DNA of 64,000 nt from Pseudogymnoascus verrucosus (taxonomy: Eukaryota). This document shows, in pieces, positions 6,662 through 49,894 of this stretch. The stretch lies in the NCBI GenBank assembly GCA_001662655.1, contig KV460266.1. One strand, written 5' to 3'. The position numbers were made by a program, and so were the translations under genes. Every line of letters begins with the position of its first letter. Within the stretch, counting starts at the first letter, position 1. The notes under the pieces were generated by a model, which ran no database searches, had not been told where the DNA came from, and was given only the letters and a program-made list of their open reading frames with translations.

Positions 6662-7612
6662 CTGCCAAGACCACCACCAAACCGTTCCCCGTTGTCAGCC
6701 TTCCGCTTCCCTGTTCCCGCTCTAGGACCAATGCTGCTTTTACCTGCACTGCCTCAACGCCCACACTTCTCCACTTGTGGCGACCATTAAAGAGGCCCAA
6801 GAGCGCTTAAAAGCGGGAAACGGTTGGTCGATTTCCGAAATTTGCCTCGAGCCTTTCGAAAGGCCGCATCCTGTGTCTTCGATTATGACAGCGGCTTCCT
6901 GGAAACGGGAGATGGTTGGCTGGCTCCAGAAATTTGCCTGGGCCCTCCGAATGGCCGCATCCTGGCTATTCTCACGTTCCTCGAAACGCGAAACGGTTGG
7001 CCGATTTCCGAAATCTGCCTGGGCCCACTCGAACGGCTGCATCCTGTGTATTTGATCACGACAGCGGCTTCCCGGAAACGCGAAACGGTTGGACGATTTC
7101 TGAAGTCTGCCTCGGGCCTTCCAGAAGGCCGCATCCTGTGTCTTCGATCACGACGACAGCTTCATGGAAACGGGGGACGGTTGGTCGATGTCTGCCTCGG
7201 GCCTCTCGAGCGGCCGCATCCTGTGTCTCCGATCACGACGGCGGCTTCATGAAAACGGGGGATGGTTGGTCGATTTCCCAAAACGTTTCCTCGGGGCTTT
7301 TCCTCGGGGCTTTTTCCAAGGCTACATCACGGCAGCAGCTTCATGAGAACAGGGGATTGTTGGTCGATTTCCCAAAAATGCCTCAGGCCTCTGGAAAGGC
7401 CGCATCCTGTGTCACCAATGGCGACAGCGGCTTCATGGGGACGGGAGATGGTTGGCTGGTTTCGGAAATCTGCCTAGGACCTCTCGAATGGCTGCATCCT
7501 GTGTCTTCGACTTTATGGAAACAGGAGATGGTTGGCTGGCTTCAGAATTCTTCTTCAGGCTTCTCGAAAGGTCGGATCCTGCGTCTTCGATCACGACAGC
7601 AGCCAACAGCAA
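6662..7612. repeat. Family A element head followed by an imperfect tandem array (~9 units, ~82-92 bp)
   Basis: Recurring GGCCGCATCCTGTGTCTTCGATCACGACAGCGGCTTCNTGGAAACGGGAGATGGTTGG, with cores near 6866, 6957, 7039, 7131, 7216, 7402, 7494 and 7575. The head at 6662-6720 (CCAAGACCACCACCAAACCGTTCCCCGTTGTCAGCCTTCCGCTTCCCTGTTCC) matches the copies at 9.1, 22.6 and 58.1 kb. Confidence 0.9.
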
Positions 7613-7792
7613 CCTAAGACGCGTGAAAACAGTTGACTGGTTCCATAAATACTGTCGTGCCATCCATCGACTCAGCGTGGTCTCCCCCGAGTTCCTAAAC
7701 AACTTCGTTCGGTTTCCTACGGTTATACAACAATTTTCACTGCCCTTCTAACGAAATTCGCTGGACAATCTTAGCAACACATGCTATATATC

Positions 7793-8904
7793 ATGGTGTC
7801 GGGTACTAAAGGCGACGATCCTAGGGAAGTTGCAGAACGCAAGAGGCCATACTATGGTTCTCGAGGTAAGAATATCAACATTTGTATACTGAGCTGTGCT
7901 AACAGTACATAGTTGACAAATCGCCGCAAAAGAAGCAACGCCTTTCCTCACACATCGGTAGCTCTTCGCCCCGATTACCTCCCGAAATAATCATGCAAAT
8001 CATATCCGAAATTATAGACCGAAGAACCCTTCTAAGGGTTTGCCTAGTGAATCAGGCTTTTAAGGGCTTCCTCAGCATAGATTCTTTCCGTTCTGCCTAC
8101 ACTGAGGAAGTTAGGCGTGGAGAGTATACATCTGATAATGCGATCGACACTATTACTAAACACATGAAGGAACATCGAGAGGCGGCTCTGATGATTTTCG
8201 AAGTTACTTGGAAAGGTATGATCCACGAAGGGCAGTTGAAAGGTGCTGTTGCTTTCCTAAACCGCCTTGGTTATAGGCTGGATGAAGAAGATTTTGATAC
8301 AGTACTACTGTCATTGCGAACTATGTATGATACGGTTGTTCTAGGAACTTCATGGGACACCTGGGCAGCTGCGCTTACAGCAGCAGATTTCTTACACGAG
8401 GAATATCGAAATAATGACACTTCAAAGATGATACGAAGGATACGGCATGAAGCCGCTTCAAGGCGACGAGAAATAGTATGCCAGAGTATGTTACAAGTCC
8501 AGCAGGACAACGCCTTCTGTGTGTTAAAGGGCCTACGTCAATATTACGATCTAGAGTTGTATCGTGAGAAGAGGGATTCTGAAAAAAGGACGAAGATCAA
8601 TGACGCCTTAATCGAAGTTGTTCAGGCAATGCTCCGTCTTTCTATTCAGGAACATCAATGGGCCGAAGCCTGTCGTCAGGCATATGCACTATTGGACCTT
8701 AATGGAGACGTCGACAGTTACCTTCAAACACTCAAAAACATCTGTAGTCAGGCGATTTCGGAGGATCGGTGGGCGGATGCTATGGAAATAATGGGTTCAT
8801 TCAAGAACTATACAGATGTTGCAAAGGAATCGCTAGACAGCCTTCGAAGTCAGTGGTATGCGGCGGACGGGATAAGATGGACTTATGGAAACGCTGTCTT
8901 TTAA
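7793..8904 (+). CDS. F-box-like protein (paralog 1 of a tandem pair)
   Basis: ATG 7793, intron 7866-7912, then LPPEIIMQIISEIIDRRTLLRVCLVNQAF (F-box-like). Shares SAY..E.R.GE, FE.TWKG and TSW..WA.AL.AA with 9396-10729. Confidence 0.7.
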
Positions 8905-9112
8905 AGCCTAATATTATATAATGTGGACGAATTATAAAATAGTGCCATGTGCTCGATACCGTTGTTTTCTAGCCTCAGGTAGTTTTGAGCCTCTTGATAC
9001 CAGTCTATTTTTATCCCGAGACGCCCCTTTAATTCTTGCCGAATAGCTTAATCCGCTCTCTATGGTGATGGCCATAGAAGTTATTTCCAACAGCCGTAGT
9101 CGCTCTTGGCCA

Positions 9113-9250
9113 AGGCCACTACCAAAACCGTCCCCCGTTCTCGACCTTCCGCTTCCCTGTTCCTGCATCCTGTGTCTTCGATCACGGCTTCGTGGGAACA
9201 GGAGATGGTCGGCTGGCTTCGGTGCTCGGAGGGCCAGAGGTCAAGTAGCC
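9113..9250 (+). repeat. Family A dispersed element copy
   Basis: CCAAAACCGTCCCCCGTT...CCGCTTCCCTGTTCCTGCATCCTGTGTCTTCGATCACG...ACAGGAGATGGTCGGCTGGCTTCGGTGCTCGGAGGGCCAGAGGTCAA; near-identical to the reverse complement of 22530-22690. Confidence 0.9.
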
Positions 9251-9395: not shown

Positions 9396-10729
9396 ATGTG
9401 TGACAACGACCAGGCTGATCTCAAGGCAGTTGTGAAACGTAGGAGGTTAGGAGGTAATAGTATTATTATCAGCATACTAAGCTGCGCTAATAGTGCATAG
9501 AGAGCCCTATTAGGGATAATTTGTCCCTATTACCTGCTGAATTGAAGTCACAACTTTTCTTCGAAATTTCGGACCGAGAAACGCTTTTGAATCTTTCTCT
9601 AGTATCCAAGGTGTTTAGAGCTGTTTTTGATGGGAGAAAGAAGGAGTTTTTCTTCTCCGCCTACGCTAAAGAGTTTAGAAACGGAGAGCTTACGTATGAG
9701 GATGCAGCTACAGCCATCACTAAATATATAAAAGGAGAACCAAAAGCAGCTCTAATGCTTTTTGAAGCTACTTGGAAAGGCCTCTTCTATATATCTAAAG
9801 AAGAGGCTAAGCTTTTCGAAAAAGTTCTTCGCCGCAAATTAGCTACACAAGACTACGACACATTGCTTTTGTCACTATATAATATATACGACCAGAGTAT
9901 TCTGGAAACTTCATGGGGGGCCTGGGCAGGTGCACTTGGAGCAGCCGAACACTTAAGAAATCACTCTGATAAAGGAGAAATCCTTAGCATAAGGATGGAG
10001 CCATGGATACTACGCCAATTCGCTTCAAGACAGCAAGAACTGATAGGCCGGGGCGTGTTACAACTCCAGGAGGAACCTGCGATCTCTGTATTAATGGAAT
10101 TACGACGCTACCATGAAATACAGCGGCGTCGTGAGGAGGAGAGGCATCTAGAATGGAAGCATCTTGAAAGGAAGAAGAAGCACATCAACAACCAAGCTGA
10201 GGTGCTTAAGACCATAGTCCATCTTGACTTCAAGGCCATCCGGTACTATGATCGGGTTGATATGTTCCGACTAATAGCAGATTTTATGGTCCTCGAGAAC
10301 CAAGTCAGCCCTGGGCGCCATGCTGATTTCCATGGCGGGGTGCAGCGCATATGCGATCCCTCAACATGCCGTCATACTGCAGACGCCGACGATTTATTCC
10401 GCGTACTTGAAGAGATCTGCACTGAGCTTATTTTAAAGAATGACGATGACAACGCTTACTGTGCAATAAGTGTATTCGAGCGTATGCCACCGTACTATAA
10501 ACACATTGCTAAAGAACGACACAGAAGGGTTCGACGTATGTTCATTGTTAGGTGGGGGGACTTATTTGACGAGAGCGATGAGAGCGAGGACGAGAGCAAT
10601 GACAAGAGCAAGGACGAGAGCAAGGACGAGAGCAAGGACGAGAGCAAGGACGAGAGCAAGGACGAGAGCAAAGACGAGAGCGATGCATGGACGACAAGGA
10701 CGAGCGAGAACGAGTACGCGGACCTTTGA
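9396..10729 (+). CDS. F-box-like protein (paralog 2) with a (DESK)n tail
   Basis: Short first exon MCDNDQADLKAVVKRRRLG, an intron, then LPAELKSQLFFEISDRETLLNLSLVSKVF. A 12-bp GACGAGAGCAAG repeat spans ~10568-10685. Confidence 0.7.
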
Positions 10730-14234: not shown

Positions 14235-15617
14235 TCAGCCTGTAAATGACGGATCCACAGCTTCAAATGAGCGCATAACGGCCATTGTTATTACTGGGTA
14301 GCCCATAATAACATCATGTAAGCCAGTCTTGAGAATTTCCTCCCGAATAACACCGTTTTCTGCCCGCCATTCCATGACTGACCCTGCAGCGCCTAGATCT
14401 ACCTTAGATTCCAATTTTCTTGCTTTGAGATCGTCGTAGCTTATTCCTGCATACACTGAAGCGTTGACAGCATGCCAAAAGATAGTGGGGGTGTGATGCC
14501 ATGGAATATCATAATCGTCCTCGGCATGTATGATCGTTAGGCGATACATCTCTCCATTAACTTCATTAGCTTGGACGTATTGTGCAATGTTGTCTTTGCT
14601 CAACCATTTATCCTGTATAAAGCGTAGAAGGTAGTTGAACAGCAGCGGGAGCTTCGCAAGCGGCGCCAGGAGAGGAATAGTTCCTGCAACTCGGTAGCTC
14701 GCGACAAGTGTTGCGACATCAACAAATGGTGCAACTAGGATGGTGCCTGCAAAGACGACGGGTGGACTTTGGAGAGCAAGGTGCTTAGACACAGCGATGC
14801 TCACAGCCGTGCCCATAGATTGAGCAAAGATGAGAATACGGGAGGAAGGGATGCTGGCGACGTTCATGGCCCAGTCCGCAACGGCAAGGGCATCCATTAT
14901 AAGTCCGCTCTCGCACGGTGTGCCAGTGCTACGCCCAAATCCTCGATAGTCAAATGTCAAGACATGAATCTTTCCAGGCTGGCCTGCCGACAGTGCGTGA
15001 TAGTTAGGAACTCTATAGCCTGAGCCCACGGTTCCCCCAGCACCATGCATGTGAATAATTAGTCGAGCATCAGGATTATCGCGCAAAAGTTGGAAAGCTA
15101 GTCGAGACGTGATATCGGAAACGAAACCAGTTGGTTCAGCAACAAGAGGAAGCTCGTTTTTGCGATACAACTCTCTGGGAAGAATATGCCAGGCGTAAAG
15201 ATGTTCACCATCGGATGTCTTAATTGAGAAAGGCGTAACCTGGTTCTTTAGAAAGCCAAAGGTCTCAGGGACATCGAGATCCTTGCACCACGTCATCTGA
15301 ATTGCATGTAGGTAAACAACATGGGATTGAAAGGTCGACGTCGTCAGCAGTCCCAGTAGTGCCGTATACAGCCCAGTCGCAACTGCTACCGAAATGAAGG
15401 CATATTTCGCCGCCGTCATGATTGGCAGAGGTGAGGTGCAAGAAGTGTTGGTGCTGTTGAGGCTGTTAACCGCTGTGGAAGATCGTGCCATAGCTGGCTC
15501 CTCAAGGGCTTTCTTCCGCCCATACAGAAGTGATGCTGGAGCGGATCTTGGTGAATGGGGGTCTCGTTGCTGCTCCCAGTTGCTGTTTGTAGTACAACTT
15601 TCATAGGTTTGAGACAT
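14235..15617 (-). CDS. Alpha/beta hydrolase (ABHD12-like) with an unrelated N-terminal 40 aa
   Basis: HMHGAGG, FDYRGFGRSTG, AQSMGTAV nucleophile elbow, IIHAEDDYDIP and GLHD, plus an N-terminal TM helix. The first 40 aa match ORFs 37227 and 41959. Confidence 0.85.
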   Translation of the reverse strand: MSQTYESCTTNSNWEQQRDPHSPRSAPASLLYGRKKALEEPAMARSSTAVNSLNSTNTSCTSPLPIMTAAKYAFISVAVATGLYTALLGLLTTSTFQSHVVYLHAIQMTWCKDLDVPETFGFLKNQVTPFSIKTSDGEHLYAWHILPRELYRKNELPLVAEPTGFVSDITSRLAFQLLRDNPDARLIIHMHGAGGTVGSGYRVPNYHALSAGQPGKIHVLTFDYRGFGRSTGTPCESGLIMDALAVADWAMNVASIPSSRILIFAQSMGTAVSIAVSKHLALQSPPVVFAGTILVAPFVDVATLVASYRVAGTIPLLAPLAKLPLLFNYLLRFIQDKWLSKDNIAQYVQANEVNGEMYRLTIIHAEDDYDIPWHHTPTIFWHAVNASVYAGISYDDLKARKLESKVDLGAAGSVMEWRAENGVIREEILKTGLHDVIMGYPVITMAVMRSFEAVDPSFTG

Positions 15618-15709
15618 GTTTGCGGCCTCTCAAGGTGCGGAAGAAGCTTATGGTAATTGATAGAACTACAAATAGGAAGATTGAAGACGTGAATAGTGCT
15701 CTAGTGACG

Positions 15710-15810
15710 GTGGCCAGGGCATCGTTGGCCAGAGTTTCCAAATGAGGACAAGTGCACTTTGAGCCCATGGCTGCAGGGGGTCAGTGAGAAAACGGTGATG
15801 CAGGGACGGT
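15710..15810 (+). repeat. Family B dispersed element copy
   Basis: CGTTGGCCAGAGTTTCCAAATGAGGACAAGTGCACTTTGAGCCCATGGCTGCAGGGGGTCAG; homologous to copies near 33520, 35325, 37100 (reverse complement) and 42590. Confidence 0.85.
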
Positions 15811-16448
15811 CAACCTATAGGATGTTGTTGTTCTATCCCAATTAGGAATCTCTACTATTCATTCATTCCTGTAGATCCTCTAACCTGGCCAAAGGTTGAC
15901 TGGGCATGGTGGGTAGGATTCGCTGATATAGCCCGTACGACTACACTGTGGCAGACAAATGACAAGAAAAACCGGGCTGATCTCGAGATCGTATTGATGA
16001 GCGTGCAGTTCTTTCAAACGGAATCGGAAGAGGCGAAGGAGGCATTGAAAGAGCTTGATAACGGTTTGCTTGAGGAGTGATCAAGAGGTTGGATCGGAGG
16101 AGGCGTAGCCAGGAGGAGAGGAGAATAATGAGTTTCTATGAGTGAGGCATTTCGGTTGTTGCGGGGATGCTGGATTTTGGAATGGCACCACTGCAGGTCT
16201 TTTCATGTATTCGTACTAAACTGTGGATGTCTGCAAATACTTGATTGGAGGCTTCGACCCATTGATGTTCCTAGACAGCAAGATTGAGCGTTGCGTGAAG
16301 CACTTCAGCCAGGTCGTCGTTAAGTTTCTTCGTTCTTTCAAAATGCTTCGCTTCAAGGAAGCTGCACACCGTAATTAAAGGATGCAAAAGCCAACAAATA
16401 TCCCTTCTAGGTCTTCTACTATCTCCATACAAACAAACACTCAGCCTC

Positions 16449-17534
16449 TCAACGCGCATCCCGAGCCTTACAATGTAAAATATTTTCTCCAACAACCAAA
16501 AACACCTCATACCACCCCTCCCACCCTTCCCACCCCTCCCACCCCTCCCACCCTTTTAATCTAGCAAGCTGTCTCAGCAACACACTCTGTAAGCTGCGAT
16601 GCACCGGCCTAGTCCTCTTCTCATACTCTTTCAGCCCCTCCACCCCCTCATCGAGCATTTCCTTAACCCACCTCGTCTCCTTCTCCGATTTAGTGACGCT
16701 GCACCATAAAAAGTACGGCCCATGCGCCAGCACCAGTTCGCGATATATGAACTGGCGCTTTTCGAGATCGTCCTCCGCACTCGACTCTCCTAGTATCCCA
16801 TGGCTGTTGTCTTCACAACCGCCCGCGCCCCAAGTCGACCTGTCGCCGTAGTCGAACATCATGCTAGCGACCCAGACAAGGGCAAGCGTGCTCGCGATTG
16901 CAAGCGCATCTTGCTCGCATATCCAGAATTCTTGGCCACGCTGTGCGTCATCGATGCTGCCGGCGATGCGCGCGTCAGAGAGACTGAGGAGCATCTTCAG
17001 GCCGTGGCTCTTGAAGGCGTCGATGCCAGACAGACCGCACGAGGCGCAGCTGCGCGTAGAGGTTTCCAAGAGGGAGAGCAGGAGGCTTGGGATAGTGATG
17101 CCGAGGAGCGGGGAATTAGAGAGGTCGCGGAGGATTTTGTTACGCTTTTCCTGCTCGGCCATCCAGGGAAAGGTGTATGGACGGATGATAGAAGGGAGGC
17201 AGCCTAAGAGAGTGCGTTTTGGTTCTAAGGGGATGGTCGATGGGCGGGTGAAGATGGGGATTGAGGAGGCGAGGATAGGATCCATGGAAGTTGGGTAGAG
17301 ATGAGACGTGAACTGTTGACAGAGGTGCTCTTCGTGGGTCTTCAGGACTAATCTTATTGTCTGTAACGAATAGATTAGCAAGATAGAAGAAGGTAGGGGG
17401 TGAAGTGCGGCATTTACCTTAGAGCTCCTAAGCAAACTCCTGATATCCCCTGGCTCGCAGCCTAGTTGCATCAGTATCTTAAGGATAATCTCGACAGGTA
17501 GCTGCTCTAGCCCATGTGGATCTAGTGATGCCAT
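16449..17534 (-). CDS. F-box-like protein, paralog of 35800-36932
   Basis: LEQLPVEIILKILMQL at the N-terminus, with a probable in-frame intron after RSSK. Ends in a GWEGWE repeat. Confidence 0.7.
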   Translation of the reverse strand: MASLDPHGLEQLPVEIILKILMQLGCEPGDIRSLLRSSKVNAALHPLPSSILLIYSLQTIRLVLKTHEEHLCQQFTSHLYPTSMDPILASSIPIFTRPSTIPLEPKRTLLGCLPSIIRPYTFPWMAEQEKRNKILRDLSNSPLLGITIPSLLLSLLETSTRSCASCGLSGIDAFKSHGLKMLLSLSDARIAGSIDDAQRGQEFWICEQDALAIASTLALVWVASMMFDYGDRSTWGAGGCEDNSHGILGESSAEDDLEKRQFIYRELVLAHGPYFLWCSVTKSEKETRWVKEMLDEGVEGLKEYEKRTRPVHRSLQSVLLRQLARLKGWEGWEGWEGWEGWYEVFLVVGENILHCKARDAR

Positions 17535-17788
17535 CCTCAGAATATCGACAGAGCTGTGTACAGGTCGGGACTATGAAAGTACTATCTTGTCACCGGGTGT
17601 GTCTCTCTGTAAATAGACGCTCCTGTTGTTCAGTTAAAGTAAAGTTCCGCTTCACCTATCACAATGACTTCGCGAAGACCAGAGAGTTGTCTAAAACAAT
17701 CCTGCCTCGAAGTGTTATAGTCGTGCCTCGAAGTGTTATTTGGTGTAACACTCCTTGTGAAAGAAAGTCGATTCTGTGATGACGAAAG

Positions 17789-19706: not shown

Positions 19707-22180
19707 TTACATTGAGCCGGAATCGCCTTCATCCTCACTCCGTACAGAGCCATCAGCTATGGCATCGCCTTCTTCTTCCTCTTCACCATCAGTTTCCGGA
19801 AAAGTGGTCTTTCTCTTTGGATGCGCGCTTTTCAGGGGTGTTTTCTTTTGATACTTCCTTGTTCTTGTCATTCTAGCCTCCTCTTTAGTAGCCTTCTTGC
19901 GACGTGGTTGGGCATCTTCTGCCTGAAGTTGAGCTTCAAGTTCTTTCTTAGATAGCCGAAAAACGCGCTCCGTGGGTGCCTTGGGGGCTTTTTGCCCAGA
20001 TTCTATCATGTACTGATTGATCTTTGCCCGAACGGCGTTTTCGCCGAACGCCTTCGAGAGATTACTTTCACTAGCCCACATGAAAGCAGTTCCAGGAAAT
20101 TTGACGTTAACTAAGCTGACAGCCTGGATCTTGTACATTTTTTCATCTTTGCGGCGTGGAGACATAACACCGCCGACTAATACTTGTCTCCAAGGTCGAT
20201 CTTTTAGGTCTTTGGGGGTGACAGTTTTAATCTGTTTACCCTGATGCATCGCCTGGAACTCTTGGAGAGCGCCGGCAAAACTTCTGGCGGGAACGAGCTC
20301 AAAAATAAAACGGTTCTTAAAATCTGGATTAGTTCCATGACTTTTGAGGACCAGCTGGTAGCCGCTCCCGCACGAGCGAATGTTAGCGACTCTCTTCTGT
20401 CGCAAAATCCCATCTTCCACCTCCTCAACCACCCCTGGTATAGAGACAGATACAATGCACTGTTCATCTGTGTCTTCTGCCGGAGGAGCCTCGGTCTCTG
20501 CAGCGTTTTGAGCAGGCGGTGGAGNNNNNNNNNNNNNNNNNNNNNNNNNNNNNNNNNNNNNNNNNNNNNNNNNNNNNNNNNNNNNNNNNNNNNNNNNNNN
20601 NNNNNNNNNNNNNNNNNNNNNNNNNNNNNNNNNNNNNNNNNNNNNNNNNNNNNNNGTGGAGCGTTTTGAGCAGGCGGTAGAGCGTTTTGAGCAGGTGGTG
20701 GACCAGATAAAGCAGGCGGGGGAGCTGCTTCTTTGGCGATAATCGACAAAATCTCATACACTGTTGGGAGAAAGGTATCATGAAACGTCTTTGGCCACTG
20801 GTGCTCTTGTATAAAAAGCCATGCAGCTTCCCTTAGACCTATGTACTGTGACATAATGTTTGGGTCGTTAGGGGTAGTCTTTAGCAAATTCTTGCATGTA
20901 ACAGCTTGCTGTACCATCTCAAAGAAGGGATTGAGTTGAGCGTCACCTATCGCATAGGTTGCTGGGTCGATCTTATTTGCTTCGCAGAATTTAGCTTGCT
21001 CGTTTGATAAAGCTAGAAGCTTTTGGTATGCTTCATTGTATGCTTCATTGCCTTCTACCCCATTTAGTTTAGCATCGATAAGGGTGAATAGGGGTCCATC
21101 GCGACCACCCATTCTAGAACGGATTTCATAGATCTCTTTTGGTAGTGGTTTCTTTTCAGACTGGCCGTTCTCACCATTTCCAGGCTCCTCAACATGCGGT
21201 TCATCATCCACACCTGACATAAGGGATGCGGTGTCAGAATCATCATCGTCCTCCTCTAGTCCAAAATCCGGTAGAGTATAATCGTCCTCTCCTTCAATAG
21301 GAACATATACCAAGCAAGAGACCTCTATTTTTTTCTCTGCCGACTTGTACTTTTGGTCGAGATTCTTCGTTTGCTTTTTGCTGACTTTTCCGTTTTGGCT
21401 CCTTCTCAACTCTTGCTCCTCGTTTTTTCGTTCTACCGCTAGGCGCTCTCTAAATACCGTCCGCACTAACATGTCAATATCGTCATTAATATTACTCAAC
21501 TCTTCAAGAATTCCAGTCTCAATAGATGAATCACGTGCGCCGCCTTCCGTGGCTTTCATATAATTGAGGTGGTAGTGCTGAAGTTCAGAGGCTTTGCGGT
21601 ATGGTTTTGCTAGTGAACTCTGTAATGCAGGAGTTGTAGTCACTATTGACTGGAAGTCATATTGGTCGTTGAGCTTTGGCTCTACTAACCCGTATGTATG
21701 AACTTGTCCAAGGAACTCATCTCGATCCGCGGCTAGATTTGTCGAAGCAATGGCGTTGTTAACCTCCTCTAGTTTAGCCACTTGCTCTTTGAACTGCAAA
21801 CGTAATTGTCTTGCGGAATCTGTAGGACCAGCAAGGAGCTCCTTAGGAGCTGTCTCAAATGCTTTAATATCTTTCTGTCTCTCTATTTCTCCCATTTCGA
21901 GTGATTGGAGTATTTTGGCTTGAGTTGCTTGGAAACCTCGGGCAGCTCCATATTGAATCGTCCAGAACTTGAGGCCCTCCTCGTTGGATTTCTCAATTTC
22001 AGATAAGTGAGATTTATCAAAGACATGTGGAATAGGCAGGCGCGACTGTGGCTTGGCGACATAGTTGTCTTCGATTTGAAGTTTGCCGGTTTGACCGCCA
22101 CTGGTCTGATTTCCTCCAGCTGGAGCTCCTCCACCCCCGGTGACTTGATCCGCCGGCGTAGCTACACTGATGGATTCCAT
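19707..22180 (-). CDS. Hypothetical coiled-coil protein spanning an assembly gap (ORFs 20204-22180 and 19707-20432 are probably one gene)
   Basis: PPAQNA repeats flank both sides of the N gap. Roughly aa 48-480 are homologous to an internal segment of the DUF3723 protein. Confidence 0.65.
20525..20655. other. Assembly gap inside a PPAQNA-coding tandem repeat
   Basis: Run of N with GCGTTTTGAGCAGGCGGT on both sides. Confidence 0.95.
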
Positions 22181-22477: not shown

Positions 22478-22690
22478 CCTCGTTTCCATGAAGCCGTTGT
22501 CGTCATCGCGGACACAGGATTCAGGGTAATTGACCTCTGGCCCTCCGAACAAGAAGAAGGCAGTAGAGGTCAAAGCACCGAAGCCAGCCGACCATCTCCC
22601 GTTTCCACGAAGCCGCTGTCGTGATCGAAGATACAGGATGCAGGAACAGGGAAGCGGTAGGCTGACAACGGGGGACGGTTTTGGTGGTAT
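22478..22690 (-). repeat. Family A dispersed element copy plus a partial second unit
   Basis: GCCAGCCGACCATCTCCCGTTTCCACGAAGCCGCTGTCGTGATCGAAGATACAGGATGCAGGAACAGGGAAGCGG...AACGGGGGACGGTTTTGGTGG; partial unit at 22481-22520. Confidence 0.9.
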
Positions 22691-22922
22691 TAGAAGCGGA
22701 GTAAGGATAACGGCTATTAGAAATGCCGTACTTTAAATGAGAGAATTAGGTTGAATCTATGAAGCTATGTCTTCGTGTTCTAGTGCATGGAACTTTCTGT
22801 AAATATAGCTGCCATGGGCATCATCATAGAGAGCTTGGATGGATAGATCGAGCTCCCCTAAAATAGCTCGTATTGCCATGAAGGTCTAACTATGCCCTTT
22901 ACAATATGATGTCTTTCCTCTC

Positions 22923-25176: not shown

Positions 25177-25201
25177 AGACGCAACTCAACGCAACAGCAC
25201 C

Positions 25202-32609: not shown

Positions 32610-32874
32610 GCTTGACTAGTTTAGTAAAGGCAAGCGAGAGTCACCATTGACATATGCTATGGGGCAGCTATTCCGTAGAATAACATGGTCAAAATGAGCT
32701 AGAATGTAATGGTGACGTGCAGGTGGACATATATATTAGTACCATGGTACTTTTGGAAAACGACAAACAGAATACGGGGCTCAGGACGCCACCACTGCAA
32801 ATTGGATTGGATCGGATTAATTTATAGGCTGTTCCAGCGCCCTAGTGGCAGCTACGCCGAGTACATCTATAAAT

Positions 32875-33710: not shown

Positions 33711-33830
33711 TCGAACAATAGCAGAAAAAAGTGTCGAAAAAGTTGAGTCGTAGAGAACATGCGTAGTTAAGATGAAATTCTGAGCAGCGCTGCAGCGTGC
33801 TATTGCTATTTAGCTGCCATGTATGGAATA

Positions 33831-34990
33831 TCAACACGAAGTGCCAGTGGAGAGCTGCGAGCAGCCCTCGCCAACACCCAGCCGCCATCCCTCTTTCAAC
33901 CAGAGAAGACAGCCGCAATCAGCCGCTCGGCAAGGCGTAGATTGTGGCACATCCAGCATACGGCAAAGCATGCTTGCCGACAGTGAAGTCTTCCTATATG
34001 GGAGTTTCGACTTAAGGATTTCAACGTCGTGAAAGCCAATAGAACGAATGGATTTCTTGTTGGTCTCGAAAAAATCCTTGATGACCTTTTCAGGAGCCAC
34101 CACTCGACACATGTCAAGCTGATGCAGATCAAATGCGCAGTGAGACAGCAGTTCCAGTACACGGTCGTCAACTCCACGCACGCGTAGGACCTTGATGTTC
34201 ACCAGCAGCTGTCTTAGAGACTCTGATAGAGGGCCTAGATTAGGTTCTTTCCAGAAGAATGGAAGCTTAAAGTACAACAAGCTAACGGTATGGATGACAA
34301 CGCCTGCACTTCTGGCAGCCTGAATGGCGCTCGAAACGACTTGTAGATGGTGCTTGTAAAACTCTTCTTTTATGATAATGTCTGCGGTCAACAGGCAGTC
34401 GTCATCTTCCAGCACCTCAAAGAAGGACAATCTCACCTCCTGCAACAGAGGAAGTGCACAGAAGATAGATGATAGAATTAGGTCAGCACCCTCATCGATA
34501 ATGCTGCGCTGCTCACTACAAATGTCGTGGGCGGTTTTGTATATCGCCATATATGAATGGAATTCATCTGCTTCATACCCCGCGTCGTACTTATCTTTCG
34601 CTATATCCACGTAGCTGTCGGGAGTTAAAATATTGGACCTAAAATGGTCAAAATCTAGTATTTCTACTCGATTTCAAGAGTAGCATCAGCGTAAACTCAG
34701 CGAGCGACTGGAGACGTACCAGTCTTCAACAGTTCTGTGAATTCGTATGTAAAGGAGGCAATATGTTCGCAAACATTTGACTTCAAGAGGTCTTTGAGTC
34801 CCTCAATCCCAGCCTGAGAGAACTCAAACTTCACGTGGCGAAAGAGGATCGACAGAGAGGCTTGTCTGAGCCGTTTGCTGGCGCAGGAAAGATCTTTAAT
34901 ATCCCAGAGTGGAAGGTAGTCGACAACGGCGTGGAGAATCTCCGTTGGGAGCGTCTCAAGACGCGTTAATTCGGGAGTGTCAATGCTCAT
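33831..34990 (-). CDS. F-box protein with an LRR-like C-terminus
   Basis: RLETLPTEILHAVVDYLPLWDIKDLSCASKRLRQ (F-box); an intron at about 34718-34660 joins two ORFs. Confidence 0.8.
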
Positions 34991-35319
34991 TGTGGAAATG
35001 CTGGAGGGCCGTCAATAAGTCGACTGCGGTAAGGCAGATAAGGCTGGAGGAGAAGGAGATTCGAGGGTAATTTATAATGGCGAGGCGACCTTGGAGCATA
35101 CTCCTCATGCCGTACCCCAAAAGAAATCCCACGACTGCGTATGTACAGTACAGTACTCCAAACGCGAAAGAGGTGACATGATGGCGTATTTCACACTGGG
35201 AACGCTAAAGGAAAATTAACGCGGTTACCTGGGATCTCTATTAGCGTAAATGCAACTGGTGTTGGAGGATTACCTGTGTGTCGAGGGTTCCCATACAGGT
35301 TGAGGCTGGCGTTCAGGTG

Positions 35320-35550
35320 GGCAGGGGTGGAGCTCGTTGGCCAGAGTTTCCAGATAAGGGCAAGTCGCTTTTTGCGTTATGGCGGGGGATCGGTGAGTAA
35401 ACGTGGATGTAGAGGTGGCCAGAGTTTCCAAATAAGGACAAGTGGGCTGGCTGGTACCGCTTTAAGCGCTCTGGCTGCAGGGGATCAGCGAGTAAGCATG
35501 GATATAGAGGTGGCCACACCAAAAAATGAGAATACCGCTTCACGAATGCA
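35320..35550 (+). repeat. Family B element copy (right of the F-box gene)
   Basis: Direct repeat of 33510-33710 with the same two GGCCAGAGTTTCC cores and terminal CTTCACGAAT. Confidence 0.9.
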
Positions 35551-35555
35551 CGGGA

Positions 35556-35715: not shown

Positions 35716-35799
35716 CTTCTCATATCCAACAATTTCCTTTCTAGACGCTGTAATTCCTTTGCAAGCGCTTCATAGTCCTGACCTGTCCATATTCCGAAG

Positions 35800-36932
35800 A
35801 TGGCATCACTACATCCAGATGGACTACAGCAGCTACCCGTCGAGATTTTCCTTAACATAGTCATGCAACTAGGCTCAGGGGATATCGGGAGTTTGCTTGG
35901 GAGCTCCAAGGTAGATGCCTCGTCTCACTCTTGCCCAGCTTATATCCCCACCTTGCTAATATATTGATACAGACAATAAGATCCATCCTAAAGAGCCACG
36001 AAGAGTACCTCTCTCGACAGTTCGCATCTTATCTCTACCCAAAAAGAAAACGAACGTCTAAAAAGCCCATCCTCGCCTGGCCTATCCTCACCCGCCCATC
36101 GCCCCCCTTAAAACCGAAACACATACTCTCACGCTGCATACCCACCCTCATCCGCTTCCCATATACCTTTTCCTGGGTAGCTGAGCAGGAAAAGCGCAAA
36201 AAAGTCCTCCGCGACCTCTCTAACTCCCAGCTCCTTAACGTCACCATCCCAAACCTACTAGTCTCCATCTTTGGGACCTCCACGCGCATCTGCGCCTGCT
36301 GCGGCCTTTCTGGCATCAAAGTCTTCAAGAGCCACGGCCTAAATATGCTCCTTAGACTGTCTGATGCGCGCATTTCAGGCAGCACGCCAGTTGAAGAAAA
36401 GAAGATCTCCATCGATGACGCACATCGTAGCCAAAAATTATGGATATGTCAGCAAGATAAGCTTGCGCTAGCGAGCATGCTCGCCCTTGTCTGGGTCGCC
36501 AGCACGACGTTTGACTACGGTGACAGGTCGACATGGGGCGCAGGCAGTTGCAACAACAACTGTGGGATACCTGGAGAGCAGAGTGAGGACATCAATCTCG
36601 CAAAGCGGCGGTGCACATATCGCGAACTGGCGCTGGTGCATGGGCCGTACTTTTTGTGGTGTAGCGTCAGTGAATCAGAGAAGGAGACGAGGTGGGTCAA
36701 GGACATGCTAGATGAGGGCGTGGAGTATGAAAAGGGCGTGGAGTCTATGGAGGGCGTGGAGTCTGAGGAGGGCGTGGAAGATGCTAGAATGGCGCATCAC
36801 AGCTTACAGAGTGTGTTGCTAAGTCGCCTTGCTGGGTTGAAGGGGTGGGAGGGGTGGGAGGGGTGGTATGAGGCGTTTTCTGCTTTTGGGGAAGAGATTT
36901 TATTTTGTAGGGCTTGGGGGGTTGCGCGTTGA
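35800..36932 (+). CDS. F-box-like protein, paralog of 16449-17534
   Basis: MASLHPDGLQQLPVEIFLNIVMQL, intron 35911-35972. Shares FDYGDRSTWGAG, YREL.L.HGPYFLWCSV and GWEGWEGWYE. Confidence 0.75.
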
Positions 36933-37226
36933 GAGTCAGACAGTAGAAGGCATTCGCTTGCTTTTGCATCTTTAATTATAGTAGTGTAGCGTTAAAATCC
37001 AGCCTTCCCGCAACGACCGAGACGTCTCACTCATTAATCTCGCATCCGCATCTATGAGCTTTTCTCCTGCATTAATGTTTGCTCACTACAGCTATAGCGC
37101 TTAAAGTGCACTTGTCCGTATTTGGAAACTCTGGCCAACGATGCCTTGGTCAGCCTCCACGATAGAACTATTTACGTCTCCCGTCTTCCGCCTTTTTGTT
37201 CTCCTCCACCTTAAGAGGCCGCAAAC

Positions 37227-37934
37227 ATGTCTCAAATCTACGAAAATGGCACCACAAATGACAAGGGGACGGAACAACTAAGACTTCCTCTTTCACCGAG
37301 ATCCACCCTACCATCACTTCTACATAGACGAAAGATTGCCCTCGAGGACAGCAAGAAACTTCATGAGGCAGAGATCGCACACCTACAGCAGCAGCTCGAT
37401 AACTTTTATAAGATAATCAGTGCAACAAAAACGCGTATAAAGGATACTTCGCTTAGCCTGAAGCAAGTAGAGCGGTCAATCATCAATGTGAATGAAGAGG
37501 AGATGGGGATTCAGGCAGAGCGAAATGCACACAACAGCGTCAACGATGCGGTGTACAACATAGCAGAAGCTGCGCTGTCCCCAGCCAATTCTATAGCGGC
37601 AGAATGGAGAGGATGTGCATGCTCGTCACACCAAGAAATCTACAAAGGCTGGCCAAAACACAACGCCGAGCTAACTATCGCTCAGTGCATGAGAACATGC
37701 ATGTACTGCGGTAGTAATTTTCGAGGGGCATCCGAGCTACGCAAACACATAAAGGGAGCAAGGTATGCTCGAAGAAACCTTTGTGTAAGGCGGGAGACGC
37801 GGGGGAGATATAGCTCCACTACTCCGGCCTGGACTGTCTCAATTCACAATCAGATCCTGAATCTAGGAATAGTTCCTACGACTGGACAGTGCCCCCAAAG
37901 ACTACTGGTGGAGATTGGAGAGCACCTTGCTTAG
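37227..37934 (+). CDS. Coiled-coil protein with a C2H2-like motif
   Basis: SPR...LLHRRKIALEDS coiled coil and CMYCGSNFRGASELRKHI. Family B motif (reverse complement) lies upstream at 37100-37150. Confidence 0.55.
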   Translation: MSQIYENGTTNDKGTEQLRLPLSPRSTLPSLLHRRKIALEDSKKLHEAEIAHLQQQLDNFYKIISATKTRIKDTSLSLKQVERSIINVNEEEMGIQAERNAHNSVNDAVYNIAEAALSPANSIAAEWRGCACSSHQEIYKGWPKHNAELTIAQCMRTCMYCGSNFRGASELRKHIKGARYARRNLCVRRETRGRYSSTTPAWTVSIHNQILNLGIVPTTGQCPQRLLVEIGEHLA

Positions 37935-38172
37935 ACATAGCGATCCTCACAGCAGTGCCTATCGATTGAGCAAAGATGAGGATACGGGAGGAGGGATGCT
38001 AGCAATAGACGTAAAGACGTTTACTATTAGATGTCTTAATAGAGGGAATAGTTCATTATAAAGCTAAAGTTCTTGGAGACATTGAGATCCTTAAACGAGG
38101 TCATCTAAATTGCTGGTAAATAACATAGGATTGAAGGGTCGACGCCATCAACAGTGCCAACTACTACCGAAA
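37895..38172 (-). pseudogene. Internally deleted remnant of the ABHD12-like hydrolase
   Basis: 37900-38005 aligns by eye to 14755-14860, and 38025-38172 aligns to 15205-15395, with indels and stops. Confidence 0.75.
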
Positions 38173-42357: not shown

Positions 42358-42539
42358 GTTTGCGGCATCTTAGAAGAGAAGAAGAGTCCGGCGTGCCTGA
42401 TATTTATGACAGGAGGCATGGTAAAGAGCGAAAAGCGGAAAACAGAAACAAACAGGGCTATGGGCGGGAAGGCTGCCGATTTGCCGAAGGTTACGGCGGC
42501 AAAGGGTGGACCACAAGTCCCTAGCCAACGGAGGGCCTC

Positions 42540-42621
42540 CACTAGTCCCTACTTGGAAACTCTGGCCAACGGCCACAACCGGCCGCACCCGTTGGCCAGA
42601 GTTTCCAAGTAGGGACTAGTG
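42540..42621. repeat. Perfect 33-bp inverted repeat with a 16-bp spacer, made of family B heads
   Basis: CACTAGTCCCTACTTGGAAACTCTGGCCAACGG (42540-42572) and its exact reverse complement (42589-42621). Family B tail continues to ~42710. Confidence 0.95.
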
Positions 42622-42868
42622 ATTGTACCATTTTGGGAGCAATGGTTGCAGGGGGTCAGCTACTAACCTAGATGTAGAAGTGGCCACGCCTTGGGTACCG
42701 CTTCACGAATACTGAAAAACGAGTGCAGAAAATCGTATACTATAGACTGACTTCTGGAGAACAGACAAACTATATAATGAGCTCTAGGAGCCGTTCTCCC
42801 ATCATTACCAAACAAACCATTCAATATCACTCTTAACTAATCGTCTTTTATCATTCCTAAACCTTACA

Positions 42869-47165: not shown

Positions 47166-47245
47166 GATATAACAGCGGCATCTTATACGGGGAACCATAC
47201 GATGCATGTGACAGGTTCTATGCTTATTCTCCCCTACTTGTGCGC

Positions 47246-47617
47246 CTAAGTGCTTCCCCCTCCATATTCCAAAATCAAGTCACGAAAGCTCCTCGAGGCC
47301 GTTTCTGCCAGTTTTGCCACGACCTCTATTTGCAAGCTCAACACTGTTTCCCTCTCCTTTCCTAGATCTGGCCCAAGAATTCTGTCGTCCTGCATAGGCG
47401 CTGTTGTGGCTAATGGAATCGGTTTTTGTCGTTTCGATGGAGGACGATCCAAACTGTAAGAGGTGATTCGGCCACGTTTTCCTACTTTTCGCAAGCCACC
47501 CAAACTTCGATTATCGTTATATAATTCATTATATCGTCGCTGAATCTTCTTCCATGACATGCCATTAGCCTGCCACTCCCGAATTTGCCATTTTTGAGTA
47601 TTGGTATATGGGTTCAT
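47246..47617 (-). CDS. Small Myb/SANT-like protein
   Basis: YTNTQKWQIREWQANGMSWKKIQRRYNELYNDNRSLGGLR. Confidence 0.6.
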   Translation of the reverse strand: MNPYTNTQKWQIREWQANGMSWKKIQRRYNELYNDNRSLGGLRKVGKRGRITSYSLDRPPSKRQKPIPLATTAPMQDDRILGPDLGKERETVLSLQIEVVAKLAETASRSFRDLILEYGGGST

Positions 47618-48500
47618 CGTGTTCCTAGTTGGAGTGTATTGCAGGACAGAAGAGAGTACGGAGAGAGTACGGAGGATATTCATACACTCAAGGGCTACAT
47701 TTTCGGTATAGCTCACTATTTACCCCTCATGGCCAGAGCTTCCTATTGAAGCTTAGAGCTCAAAACGCTTTGCGCGCTTTAGCGCTACTTGCGGCTTGGC
47801 AGTGGGCAGTCCCCGTAGTGCGAGTGTAACCGAGCCCGAGCTAGTCCCTAGCACACGCTGTATCTAGCAACCACTTTGCCGCTGTCCTCGAAGGCGGTTG
47901 GAAAAATTATCCGGACACCTATGAAAAGTCATGTCGCAAATACTAGCTTTATATCTAGGCAAAGACATAAATCAAAATTCTGAAGAGACATGTCTTTTTA
48001 GAAGAAGGTTATTGTAAATTAATAATAGTTTTGTAACTTTTGAACCATTATTGCGCTGGTAAGCCTGTCGTGAATTTGAATCGCTTTTCAAAGTGTCCGG
48101 ATAATTTTTCGAACCGCCTTCGCCTGCATGTCACATGACTAGAAACTAATGCGGGTTCCGCATCTTGTGAATGGGGGCGTTCGGTCCAACAATTAGCTAA
48201 TACAGGGTCCCACGCTCGCACTCCCCACAACTTACCTTTAAGCGCCTGACACATTACCCAGCTGTGCCTATTATGTAGGTATAGCTATTCACTAGTGTAC
48301 GTACCTATTTACCTAATTATATACCACAAAGGCGTCATCGCTCATTGTATATTTTGACGTGTGGCCAAGATGATAGGGCTGGCCGTGGCTTCATTGGTCC
48401 CGCCAGTCTGGTTCTGCCGCAGCATCCACAGGGCGAGACGGAGATGCCGAAAAAAGCTCCTAATGTCCGAAAAACAAAAAGGCGTGCATGTCCGAAAAGG

Positions 48501-49894
48501 GGCCATGGCGAACCAGCGTGGTCCCGAATGTCTGGTTCTGCGCTAGGCGCAGCATCCATGCGAATGTGATAAGAAGGTCTCGAGGGACTGCATATGAGTG
48601 GCTGCTATATGTATCGATCTAGACATATTTAGATTCAAAGAACGGAAATGCGGATGCGAGTTTCTGTAAACCGTGGTGTTGGTGGCGTACTCATACGAGC
48701 GGATTAGCCACCCAGGACCTTTCCTATGAATACCCGGAAGCATTGGACAGGAGAATCGAGATAGAAAACATAGATAGATACGAGCCCGCCAGCTACAGTC
48801 TCCCCGCCTCACAGTTTTTGCTTTTTCCGATATGATCACTTTGCCCTCTATGGATTTCGGCCACTTTGATGTGGATGCGTATCTACAGCTCCCACTAGAG
48901 AATGCGAATATGCCCACGGCTCCTGTTGCACCCATGGTACCCACGTCACCCATGGCCGCCGTCCTTCCTGCGACGCCCCCATCGGTGGACACCTTATACG
49001 ATGACCTCTACAATTACGGAGAGACTGCGCCTGGGATTTCAGAGCTCGATTGGCTGGCCCACGATGCTATCNNNNNNNNNNNNNNNNNNNNNNNNNNNNN
49101 NNNNNNNNNNNNNNNNNNNNNNNNNNNNNNNNNNNNNNNNNNNNNNNNNNNNNNNNNNNNNNNNNNNNNNNNNNNNNNNNNNNNNNNNNNNNNNNNNNNN
49201 NNNNNNNNNNNNNNNNNNNNNNNNNNNNNNNNNNNCCCACGATGCTATCGAGCCTACAAGGCTAAACCGCCCGTCAATCGCCGTTAGAGATGCTTTCGTT
49301 CAAGCAGACCTAGATGATCTGGCCCCAGATGATCTGACTGACCAGCTCACCAACGAAGCAAACGAGCCGCACACGCCTGATGTGCAAACCCAGGTTTACA
49401 TGTCCCAAGAGGACTCCTTCGGAACCAAAGAGGATAACCATTTGGAGAACCGCGCTGCAATCAGGTATGGGCTTATCTTGGTACACCACGTTCACAGAGA
49501 GACAAGTTAACACTATAGCAAGCCTTGTATTAGAAGAGATTGGAATACTACGTGCTGAGCGGGCTGCCACCGAGGATAAGATGAATAAGATAATGGCCGC
49601 CATTACTAAATACAACACTTTCACGGAGGAAGCACCCGTACTGATTCAGATGCTTAGCGAAAAATTAAATACAGTGACCCAAAATCACAAACAGGATAGA
49701 TAGGTGTTTGTTTAGAGAATATTTAATAAATTACTAAGTCAAACTTCTTCTATCAATAGTGGTATGTATTGGGAATATCCGTAGAGCCAAGAAGTCGGCG
49801 GAGATCCCCGCCTTGGCCTACTTATCACATCCGCATGGATGCTGCTCCTACCGGCAGTACCAGGCATTCGGGACCACGCTGGTTTGCCACGGCC
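48501..49894. mobile_element. ~1.4-kb unit bounded by ~75-bp imperfect inverted repeats and containing one hypothetical gene
   Basis: 48501-48577 matches the reverse complement of 49817-49894 (shared AACCAGCGTGGTCCCGAATG and GCAGCATCCATGCG.ATGTGATAAG). No transposase or TSD seen. Confidence 0.5.
48832..49703 (+). CDS. Hypothetical protein spanning an assembly gap (N 49072-49235)
   Basis: ORF pieces lie on both sides of the gap, and CCCACGATGCTATC is repeated on both gap flanks. Probable intron from 49465. Confidence 0.5.

Follow-up and report, generated by a model that had tools for sequence, protein, structure and literature searches.

The two repeat families, A and B, found in the 64-kb stretch of fungal DNA analysed here (the window) are, on balance, probably conserved cis-regulatory modules that were spread by duplication and promoter reuse and that also act as substrates of ordinary repeat-mediated recombination. 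They were designated putative promoter modules on the basis of position and conservation only. All copies of A and B are located 5' of a start codon and oriented towards the gene, at a distance of 90-430 bp from the start codon in nine of the ten locus-gene pairs; the tenth is B2, for which the start codon of the DUF3723 gene was not located. The A copies lie 170-300 bp ahead of the ATG, all four of them gene-oriented, and the corresponding core-to-ATG distances in family B, likewise gene-oriented, are 90, 109, 236, ~300, and 350-430 bp. Tandem arrays are frequent in both families, and the copies form islands of 84-100% identity beside genes with only 39-43% protein identity. The repeats are short and non-coding: the unit periods (~83 and 80-94 bp) do not divide evenly by 3, and searches against Rfam and for tRNAs gave no match for the repeats. 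The downstream genes, which use both strands, carry their own TATA-like or CT-rich core promoters and introns, and some A and B copies precede unrelated genes. Focal conservation and fixed orientation would be equally possible for a recombinase recognition site, a point against the cis-regulatory reading. The coordinates of all features are given in Table 1.

Table 1. Repeats, genes, pseudogenes, and duplicated segments located in the window
Feature	Coordinates	Strand	Description
DUF3435-like pseudogene	4772..6400	-	broken across several frames; upper coordinate approximate
A1	6653..7603	+	A head 6653-6720, then ~7-9 tandem units; ~180 bp 5' of g1 start codon
g1	7781..8904	+	F-box-like gene, two exons; ATG 7781 or 7793, intron ~7866-7912
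A2	9100..9226	+	A head and one unit; g2 start codon ~170 bp downstream
g2	9396..10729	+	paralogue of g1 (39% protein identity over 214 aa); intron homologous to that of g1
Inverted segmental duplication	14743..17551 and 35783..38159	- and +	arms 72-85% identical; hold B1 and B4
B1	15690..15808	-	one B unit; core 109 bp 5' of ATG 15617 (ABHD12-like ORF)
Gene behind A3	20204..22180	-	partial duplicate (75%/1296 nt) of 3' part of DUF3723 ORF; unrelated to g1 and g2
A3	22478..22697	-	A head, one unit, and part of another; family A block 22697-22574; ~300 bp 5' of ATG 22180
DUF3723 gene	26531..32615	-	long repeat-rich tail; 69-bp tandem array 32877-33404 upstream
B2	33511..33716	-	two B cores and an end piece; 115 bp past stop of F-box gene
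F-box gene	33831..34990	-	99% identical to VE01_09445 of Pseudogymnoascus verrucosus; 367-aa CDS, one intron
B3	35317..35552	-	two cores and a degenerate third unit; 350-430 bp 5' of F-box gene ATG 34990
B4	37065..37174	+	one B unit; core 90 bp 5' of ATG 37227
B5	42520..42715	.	two facing cores; stem ~30 bp, loop ~16 nt (42540-42621)
Gene between inverted repeats	48501..49894	.	ATG 48832; N run 49073-49235 inside gene
A4	57900..58128	-	A head and 2-3 units
DUF3435 pseudogene	58542..60216	+	Pfam pieces in three frames; in-frame stop ~59752 within catalytic region

A 28-mer taken from the A head matched the window at three places with at most 3 mismatches, compared with none in 100 shuffles; A1 is not among these matches, its sequence being interrupted there by an insertion, and was recovered by blastn. 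The A heads are 84-92% identical to one another in DNA (blastn), the outer edge of A is sharp and lies ~45 bp ahead of the head, and a TATA-like box is present downstream of all four copies. Within A1 the unit periods are 80-94 bp, mostly 92, and each unit contains an imperfect palindrome of ~16 bp. The tandem units of A plus an F-box gene that had been predicted were recovered as A1 with 7781/7793-8904 and A2 with 9396-10729, with weak F-box-like Pfam matches for g1 and g2 (E 8e-5 and 0.016, both below the cut-off). The intron common to g1 and g2 scored 40 against a shuffle maximum of 25. Behind A4, a TATA-like box is followed by the remnant of a g2-like exon 1 with its 5' splice site (ATG ~57780), and exon 2 is absent at that place; the exon and splice site common to g2 and this remnant scored 54 against a shuffle maximum of 24. 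The DNA 3' of A3 bore no likeness to that of g1, g2, or A4, the scores being within the shuffle range.

The 16-mer core of B gave 11 matches with at most 3 mismatches, compared with a shuffle mean of 0.60, and none of 100 shuffles reached 11; the eight matches with at most 1 mismatch constitute B1-B5. A 19-mer inside decaying flanks is identical across all five aligned loci, and the same starting edge of ~15 nt was found in B2, B3, and B5. As the original prediction held, an F-box gene (34990 to 33831, minus strand) is located between direct B copies (33511 and 35317; 87.9% identity over 132 nt), and B2 and B3 both fall outside its annotated 367-aa CDS. The occurrence of B ahead of three related ORFs was likewise borne out: these start at 15617 (-), 37227 (+), and 42357 (-) and have protein identities of 43% over 83 aa and 62% over 45 aa, and the first 45 codons of the ABHD12-like ORF resemble the coiled-coil ORF family. 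B2 is upstream of a 69-bp repeat array and the DUF3723 gene, and B5 lies between divergent genes starting at 42357 (-) and ~42869 (+), with one core directed at each.

As cis-regulatory modules, A and B would be putative binding-site arrays recognized by one or two DNA-binding proteins and used in common by several fast-evolving genes of a duplication-rich, Starship-like accessory region of a Pseudogymnoascus genome. Tandem and inverted segmental duplications would have carried A1, A2, and A4, and also B1, B4, and B5, along with their genes, and A3, B2, B3, and one of the two cores of B5 (the second) may have been joined to other genes during rearrangement. Likeness among the copies would be maintained by selection on the binding sites, and the dispersed repeats (120-230 bp) would provide substrates for ordinary homology-driven recombination. 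In fungal gene clusters, the binding sites of one regulator are found in the promoters of co-regulated neighbouring genes. The A and B modules are similar to such motifs in being upstream, orientation-consistent, often multiplied, common to unrelated neighbours, and bidirectional at B5; they differ in that gene-cluster motifs are 6-12 bp in length, whereas the A and B modules are ~120-230 bp with sharp edges.

The region is rich in tandem and segmental duplications, and A1/A2/A4 and B1/B4/B5 accompany paralogous genes. This pattern is consistent with A and B being neutral promoter DNA that was copied when the genes duplicated and was homogenized by gene conversion between nearby copies, functionless and with a role in recombination only by chance. 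Co-duplication of promoters, which had been named beforehand as the alternative, does apply where A1, A2, and A4 share a downstream intron or exon 1 and where B1 and B4 lie in the inverted duplication, but it accounts for only part of the pattern. Within this duplication (2.5 kb), the spacer past the stop of the upstream gene, beside B1 and B4, has diverged past alignment, whereas B scores 23-28 out of 30 in each 30-column window. Gene conversion is not expected to leave a perfect 19-nt core at five loci over 27 kb and in both orientations, and unrelated genes are also preceded by A and B. Neutral leftovers were judged an unlikely explanation.

It is unlikely that A and B derive from small mobile elements (MITE-like, solo-LTR-like, or other promoter-bearing repeats) inserted upstream independently of the genes. 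The sharp outer edges of A and of B2, B3, and B5, the copies ahead of unrelated genes, and the tail-to-tail pair that forms B5 would suit such an origin, but A and B showed neither flanking terminal inverted repeats nor target-site duplications, and identity peaks in a perfect core and falls off in the flanks instead of being even along the unit. Copy number argued in the same direction: the depth of B-holding bins was only ~1.5-3.6x baseline in four other genomes, with other repeats also present in those bins, and an exact search of JGI metagenome contigs with the B 19-mer yielded 7 loci, none of which was related to the window.

Contigs (not raw reads) of four other organisms were aligned to window positions 30000-49999. 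A 13,284-nt contig of one of these organisms, X2, joins position 33605, inside B2, to position 35536, and the F-box gene and one B copy are missing there; the contig has ~98% identity over 35536-47759 and 94 letters on the short side of the joint. Joints in X16 and X4, which have short sides or intervening unmatched letters, agree with that of X2, and in these two organisms as well the F-box gene is apparently absent at the locus. The indel equals exactly one period of the direct B pair, and its right breakpoint coincides with the sharp right edge of B3 homology. Five of the 15 joints listed (from a total of 98) end in or at a B copy, B making up ~4% of the stretch, which is above simple chance, though any dispersed repeat attracts contig-alignment joints. 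B2 and B3 are 12% different and the flanks differ by ~2% between organisms; the F-box event can therefore be read as loss or gain. In this one limited case, gain or loss took place at B.

A 57-bp difference directly behind B4 (37149 to 37207) was present in all four organisms and the locus was otherwise bridged, and no difference was found in the bridging contigs at B5 or at either inverted repeat (48501, 49817). Within positions 30000-49999, the forecast mapping of a presence/absence breakpoint to the repeats was seen once, at B2/B3 with the F-box gene; B4, B5, and both inverted repeats were bridged without such a change. The gene between inverted repeats at 48501 and 49894 is present as described earlier, the repeats (48501-48577 and 49817-49894) being 78 nt in length and 88% identical. 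The edges of 48501-49894 showed no target-site duplication, and no second full copy was found within the 64-kb window. In the related genomes, contigs of X2 and X4 run across the left repeat in its place and an X2 contig does so across the right one, and the segment was rejected as a TIR transposon or MITE on these grounds.

Repeat-mediated (non-allelic homologous) recombination leads to deletion or duplication between direct repeats. The F-box indel conforms to this in being one period between direct B copies with 88% identity over 132 nt; it differs in that the B repeats are short and 12% diverged, which makes them a poor substrate. Recombination of this kind would explain the indel (gene 33831-34990 and exactly one B period) and would make a dedicated recombinase unnecessary.

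Bacterial integrons consist of an IntI integrase, an attI site, and promoterless cassettes bounded by attC sites. Under the original prediction, a comparable system would have single-gene cassettes inserted and excised at A or B sites of a Starship by a tyrosine recombinase, here of the DUF3435 type. The window resembles integrons in having short conserved sites beside single genes, a gene that is variable together with one site, and tyrosine-recombinase genes nearby. The lack in X2 of one gene together with one B copy at the corresponding locus, with the weaker X16 and X4 joints in agreement, the right breakpoint at a sharp B edge, the 19-nt core identical at five of five aligned loci, and the presence of an A copy a few hundred bp from each DUF3435 remnant all favour this idea. 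Unlike integron sites, A and B do not form hairpins, are 5' of promoter- and intron-bearing genes, and are accompanied by genes in both orientations, and the window is without an intact recombinase, an attI-like entry site, or a common promoter.

Single-strand DNA folding was compared with 200 shuffles for each of ten segments (A1-A4, B1-B4, an A1 unit, and B5). Nine of them folded no better than the shuffles (z -0.22 to +1.39; 77-190 of 200 shuffles folded at least equally well), and only B5 (42530-42630) was a strong hairpin, with z -11.85. The claim that the repeats are palindromic was therefore not upheld, apart from the B5 hairpin and the ~16-bp palindrome in the A1 units. Single genes, also claimed, do occupy the intervals A1-A2, B2-B3, B3-B4 (inverted), and that between the inverted repeats; A2-A3, B1-B2, and B4-B5 hold several genes. 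The multigene content of most inter-repeat intervals is contrary to a cassette system. In other genomes, the similarity of F-box gene paralogues to the window is limited to ~33879-35085 and then ceases, so that B does not delimit them at this distance, which is also contrary to a cassette, as is the lack of change at B5 and the inverted-repeat pair and the restriction of change at B4 to 57 bp.

Tyrosine recombinases had been placed nearby, and two DUF3435 loci were found, both of them broken; an in-frame stop interrupts the catalytic region of one. PF11917 matches were obtained at 59422-59751 (E 1.1e-9), 59755-60216 (E 2.5e-9), and 4772-5530 (E 3.6e-5, below the cut-off), and no intact DUF3435 gene was found within the 64-kb window. 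Both loci are directed outwards, away from the repeat-bearing region, and the 5' end of each has A1 or A4 within a few hundred bp; for these two copies the promoter reading must assume shared regulation, which counts against it. An integron-like system is very unlikely because the expectations for the fold of the sites, for their position, and for an intact recombinase in the window all failed.

The window is Starship-like by its DUF3435 sequences and the co-located DUF3723 and ferric reductase genes. Matches to DUF3723 had E values of 1.3e-19 and 7e-11, those to Ferric_reduct and NAD_binding_6 had E values of 6.6e-8 and 2.3e-6, and a patatin match was weak (E 0.0011; 19.7 bits, the cut-off being 27.7). 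An NLR gene was not seen in the 64-kb window. In Gluck-Thaler et al. 2022 (PMC9156397), regions of this kind without target-site duplications are termed 'Starship-like', and the co-location of DUF3435 with DUF3723, ferric reductase, and a weak patatin-like match is shared with the regions described there. Starships have defined ends (direct or terminal inverted repeats and a target-site duplication), with the captain as the first gene at the 5' end; the window differs in that its DUF3435 genes are decayed and outward-pointing and no element ends, TIRs, or target-site duplications were identified. Passages of PMC11623301 located by term search ascribe cargo acquisition to Starship-Starship recombination, with no site described, and by term search the word 'integron' is absent from its main text, which is compatible with an integron-like mechanism. 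The island may be old or not mobile, because the ABHD12-like gene has a relative in P. destructans that is >90% identical.

It is very unlikely that B, and perhaps A, is a capture and exchange point at which single genes with one module enter or leave the Starship-like region by recombination. The route would be a trans-acting DUF3435 recombinase or the homology-driven integration of a circular molecule made up of a gene and its module. Were this reading true, the system would be a eukaryotic, promoter-carrying counterpart of the gene cassette, and the A copies beside both DUF3435 5' ends would be a recombinase-proximal entry site.

Two families of repeated intergenic modules, A and B, were found upstream of genes in the window. 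Family A comprised four blocks (A1 to A4; see table), 84-92% identical in two common parts, a head (about 50 nt) and a unit (about 65 nt). In A1 the unit was lengthened by a segment containing an imperfect palindrome (about 16 bp) and repeated in tandem, giving seven copies of 96 nt (TRF periods 85-92). Every A block was located 170-300 bp upstream of a start codon in the orientation of the gene, and a TATA-like box then followed. The paralogous F-box-like genes behind A1 and A2 (g1, 7781-8904, and g2, 9396-10729) had a common intron (score 40 versus a shuffle maximum of 25), and g2 and the A4 locus had a common exon 1 and 5' splice site (score 54 versus a shuffle maximum of 24); no further F-box ORF was found at the A4 locus, which is a remnant. 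The g1 and g2 proteins were only 39% identical over 214 aa, so that A is far better kept than the genes it accompanies. The DNA behind A3 had nothing in common with the g1, g2, or A4 loci (scores within those of shuffles). The gene located there (22180 to 20204), a 658-aa ORF at 20204-22180(-), was a partial duplicate, at 75% identity, of the repeat-rich 3' portion of the DUF3723 ORF (27302-28575) and may be a new gene assembled from duplicated pieces.

Family B was recognized by a 16-mer core with eight occurrences at one mismatch or fewer and 11 matches at three mismatches or fewer, a number reached by none of 100 shuffles (shuffle mean 0.60). A 19-mer was identical in all five aligned loci (B1 to B5), and identity fell off on either side of it. 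The B cores pointed at start codons (see table), and B2 preceded both the DUF3723 gene and the 69-bp tandem array. The original observation that B copies head three related ORFs was borne out for those starting at 15617, 37227, and 42357 (43% over 83 aa). An exact scan of metagenomes with the 19-mer returned seven loci, which had no blastn similarity to the window and unrelated surroundings and were rejected as chance matches. A coding origin of B as a leucine-rich repeat (the sense strand reads Cys-Pro-x-Leu-Glu-Thr-Leu-like) was likewise rejected, since stops close the frame within about 40 codons around B4, the period of about 83 bp is no multiple of 3, and B2 and B3 lie outside annotated CDS. 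Neither family gave an Rfam match at the gathering score or a tRNA.

B1 and B4 were contained in an inverted segmental duplication (14743-17551 versus 35783-38159), along which the spacer behind the stop codon of the upstream gene was unalignable and B gave 23-28 matches per 30 columns. The ORF behind B1 (14238-15617(-), 460 aa, annotated exactly as read here) encodes an ABHD12-like hydrolase. Its first 45 or so codons, and only these, matched the beginning of the coiled-coil ORF at 37227 (62% identity). Because a relative in P. destructans (>90% identity) has 412 aa, the B-linked N-terminus may be a chimeric addition, and the 5' end looks like a chimera produced by the inverted duplication.

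Features of the A and B families, other repeats, and domain matches (window coordinates)
Feature	Coordinates	Strand	Remarks
A1	6653-7603	+	tandem array
A2	9100-9226	+	head plus one unit
A3	22697-22574	-	plus second partial unit down to 22478
A4	58128-57900	-	block at remnant locus
B1	15690-15808	-	B locus
B2	33511-33716		two cores
B3	35317-35552		two cores and degenerate third
B4	37065-37174	+	B locus
B5	42520-42715		two cores facing each other
B core	109 bp before ATG 15617	-	points at start codon
B core	350-430 bp before ATG 34990	-	points at start codon
B core	90 bp before ATG 37227	+	points at start codon
B core	236 bp before ATG 42357	-	points at start codon
B core	about 300 bp before ATG 42869	+	points at start codon
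10-bp palindrome arrays	18471-18644; 35549-35712		intergenic, in two promoter regions
69-bp array, internal palindrome	32877-33404		7.9 copies, 92% matches; intergenic, upstream of DUF3723
Alpha/beta hydrolase	14238-15629	-	Pfam
Ferric reductase	23431-24844	-	Pfam
DUF3723	26531-32615	-	Pfam, E 1.3e-19 and 7e-11
Patatin start, weak	38352-40190	+	Pfam, E 0.0011, below cut-off
M4 peptidase	56015-57022	+	Pfam
DUF3435 pieces	two places		Pfam

The position, orientation, multiplicity, and conservation above flanks of both families are matters of observation. On balance it is probable, if not strongly so, that A and B are conserved upstream modules common to several genes of the region, most likely cis-regulatory, which allow homology-driven loss or gain between copies; their binding and effect on transcription are what we infer from the arrangement. 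Some copies would have spread along with their genes (A1/A2/A4; B1/B4/B5), whereas A3, B2, B3, and one of the two cores of B5 (the second) would have become joined to different genes. That they are neutral promoters, co-duplicated with their genes and homogenised by conversion, is unlikely: this would leave unexplained a perfect core within decayed flanks at five loci over 27 kb. We regard it as quite unlikely that they are small mobile promoter-bearing elements, a possibility raised by their sharp edges and by copies that precede unrelated genes but opposed by low copy number, focal conservation, and the lack of terminal repeats or duplications.

Public runs were searched with 33400-43399, which returned 21 rows, 20 of them holding part of the stretch and one of these 20 being the probable source of the window. 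Assembled contigs from four of the 21 runs (X15, X2, X4, and X16, representing four organisms and four studies) were aligned to 30000-49999 at 80% likeness; metagenome rows with a small share were left out of the comparison. The results are based on 15 joints out of 98 and 32 contig pieces out of 801, and stretches without contig cover (e.g., X2 at 32668-33334) were not taken as absence. In X2, a single 13,284-nt contig covered 35536-47759 (241 other letters, 130 gaps; about 98% alike) and joined straight to 33605, the side there being 94 letters long. This contig omits 1930 bp, namely the F-box gene between the direct copies B2 and B3 (33831-34990(-)) and one B period. Weaker joints were present in X16 (33605 to 35536 and 33678 to 35536; sides 27 and 21, with intervening unmatched stretches of 23 and 13 letters) and in X4 (33608 to 35539, 23 letters between, and a differing joint from 33394 to 35178). 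The X15 organism probably has the F-box gene at this place, given a contig on 34111-35352 at about 98%. The indel has its left breakpoint inside B2, and its right breakpoint coincides with the point at which B3 homology ends on the right.

Over 30000-49999, the expectation that presence/absence breakpoints map to A or B copies held for this one B2-B3 indel; B4, B5, and both arms of the 78-nt inverted repeat were bridged. The X2 contig passes unbroken through B4 and B5; the left arm of the inverted repeat was bridged by X4 (42592-49041) and X2 (48375-49050) and the right arm by X2 (49236-49999), with no gene-content change seen at either arm in these contigs. Five of the 15 joints listed (of 98) ended in or at a B copy, B being about 4% of the stretch, a count to be read with the tendency of dispersed repeats to draw joints of this type when contigs are aligned. 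Within the DUF3723 gene, loose ends at 32022-32471 marked breaks in likeness unrelated to A or B, which paralogues may cause. The length of the tandem array also varied between organisms (joint from 33272 to 33371 in X4).

The body of the F-box gene (about 33879-35085) had several diverged copies in the compared genomes, which beyond these limits were unlike the window and are therefore without B behind them at the same distance. Depth in the bin 34002-34668 stood at about 4 times (X2) and about 9 times (X4) the baseline, and the F-box protein family, at 48-63% identity, reaches Beauveria, Cordyceps, and Oidiodendron. Between B2 and B3 the difference is 12%, compared with about 2% for the flanks between the two organisms; hence B2/B3 are older than the split of the regions, or one of them has an outside origin. 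The indel is compatible both with loss through recombination of the two copies and with gain of a gene together with its B. As dispersed repeats, A and B would permit homology-driven loss or gain of the DNA between two copies, by which the one indel can be explained without a dedicated enzyme.

For most copies, folding did not uphold the palindromic character that had been ascribed to the repeats. As single-stranded DNA, nine of 10 A/B segments folded no more stably than shuffles (z -0.22 to +1.39). The only strong hairpin was B5 (z -11.85, reached in 0 of 200 shuffles), and this is simply two oppositely oriented B cores in a bidirectional promoter region. At 42540-42621, between two divergent genes, B5 has a perfect stem of about 30 bp and a loop of about 16 nt; contigs of X4 and X16 have their ends precisely at the arms (42568/42569 and 42592/42593), the X2 contig runs through, and the palindrome appears to be kept in other organisms. 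The inverted repeat at 48501-48577 and 49894-49817 proved real (78 nt at 88%). It encloses one gene with an N run inside, and no target-site duplication was seen by eye. The N run (49073-49235) has the same 12-14 letters on both sides, the X15, X2, and X4 contigs continue from 49071 with other letters, and it is probably an assembly gap, not a real loss of sequence.

Both loci of the DUF3435 recombinase are split over frames. The right-hand locus occupies three (58969-59256, 59422-59751, and 59755-60216), with an in-frame stop separating two pieces that adjoin in the Pfam profile (positions 210/210), and the left-hand one (about 4772-6400(-)) has a match that falls short of the Pfam cut-off; accordingly, no intact recombinase gene is present within the 64-kb window. 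Both are oriented away from the repeat-bearing region. They were only 32% alike over 40 aa and nothing outside A aligned, for which reasons they were rejected as recent copies of one unit of recombinase, A, and F-box gene. Two of the four A copies adjoin these loci, the only two of their kind in 64 kb: at 6400-6720 and 58055-58560, A1 and A4 each lie divergently to a DUF3435 pseudogene and within a few hundred bp of its 5' end. No alignment was obtained between the two spacers that separate A from the recombinase ORFs. A could regulate in both directions as a shared module, or DUF3435 elements could prefer it as a neighbourhood or target.

The B2-B3 indel and the proximity of A1 and A4 to DUF3435 remnants are what speaks for an integron-like system in which a recombinase moves single-gene cassettes, as originally predicted; such a system fails on the fold of the sites, their position, the orientation of the genes, and, within the window, an intact recombinase, and we consider it very improbable. 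The arrangement falls outside the integron family, three defining features of which are absent here. It resembles the shared promoter motifs of fungal gene clusters in combination with repeat-mediated structural variation.

The genes of the window have introns and fungal features. The exon at 33834-34673(-) was 99% identical to a hypothetical protein of Pseudogymnoascus verrucosus at NCBI, and the next-best matches (77-83%) were from other Pseudogymnoascus species. Domain content was assigned from Pfam matches (see table). The region may itself encode DNA-binding proteins, given weak matches below the cut-off to an SRF-type MADS-box (25175-25492(+), E 1.6e-4) and to bZIP (61132-61851(-), E 5e-4); with these, a C2H2-like ORF (37227-37934(+)) is a candidate regulator. 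By the definition of Gluck-Thaler et al. 2022, as worded in the accessible text (PMC9156397), a 'Starship-like' region has DUF3435 together with DUF3723, FRE, or PLP and is without defined ends; the window, in which no element ends were found, is such a region. In the portions of the literature available, gain and loss of Starship cargo are ascribed to recombination between elements with no site described (PMC11623301), and cargo swapping by the same route and cargo turnover are reported, again with no site (PMC11623301, PMC9156397, PMC11162782). The word 'integron' is absent from the main text of PMC11623301 as available, and 'promoter' from that of PMC11162782. Full-text searches for Starship with Pseudogymnoascus, integron/captain, and F-box/captain returned nothing on repeat-bounded cassettes in the excerpts retrieved.

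In this region, the boundaries of one single-gene difference among related fungi are marked by a conserved 200-bp module, copies of which precede five further genes. Should a dedicated cassette mechanism prove true, it would weigh far more, but the evidence is against it. If the modules are regulatory, the region would hold a small co-regulated gene set (F-box-like, coiled-coil, and DUF3723), and if the difference arose by ordinary repeat-mediated recombination, shared promoter modules would make accessory regions prone to gene-by-gene turnover.
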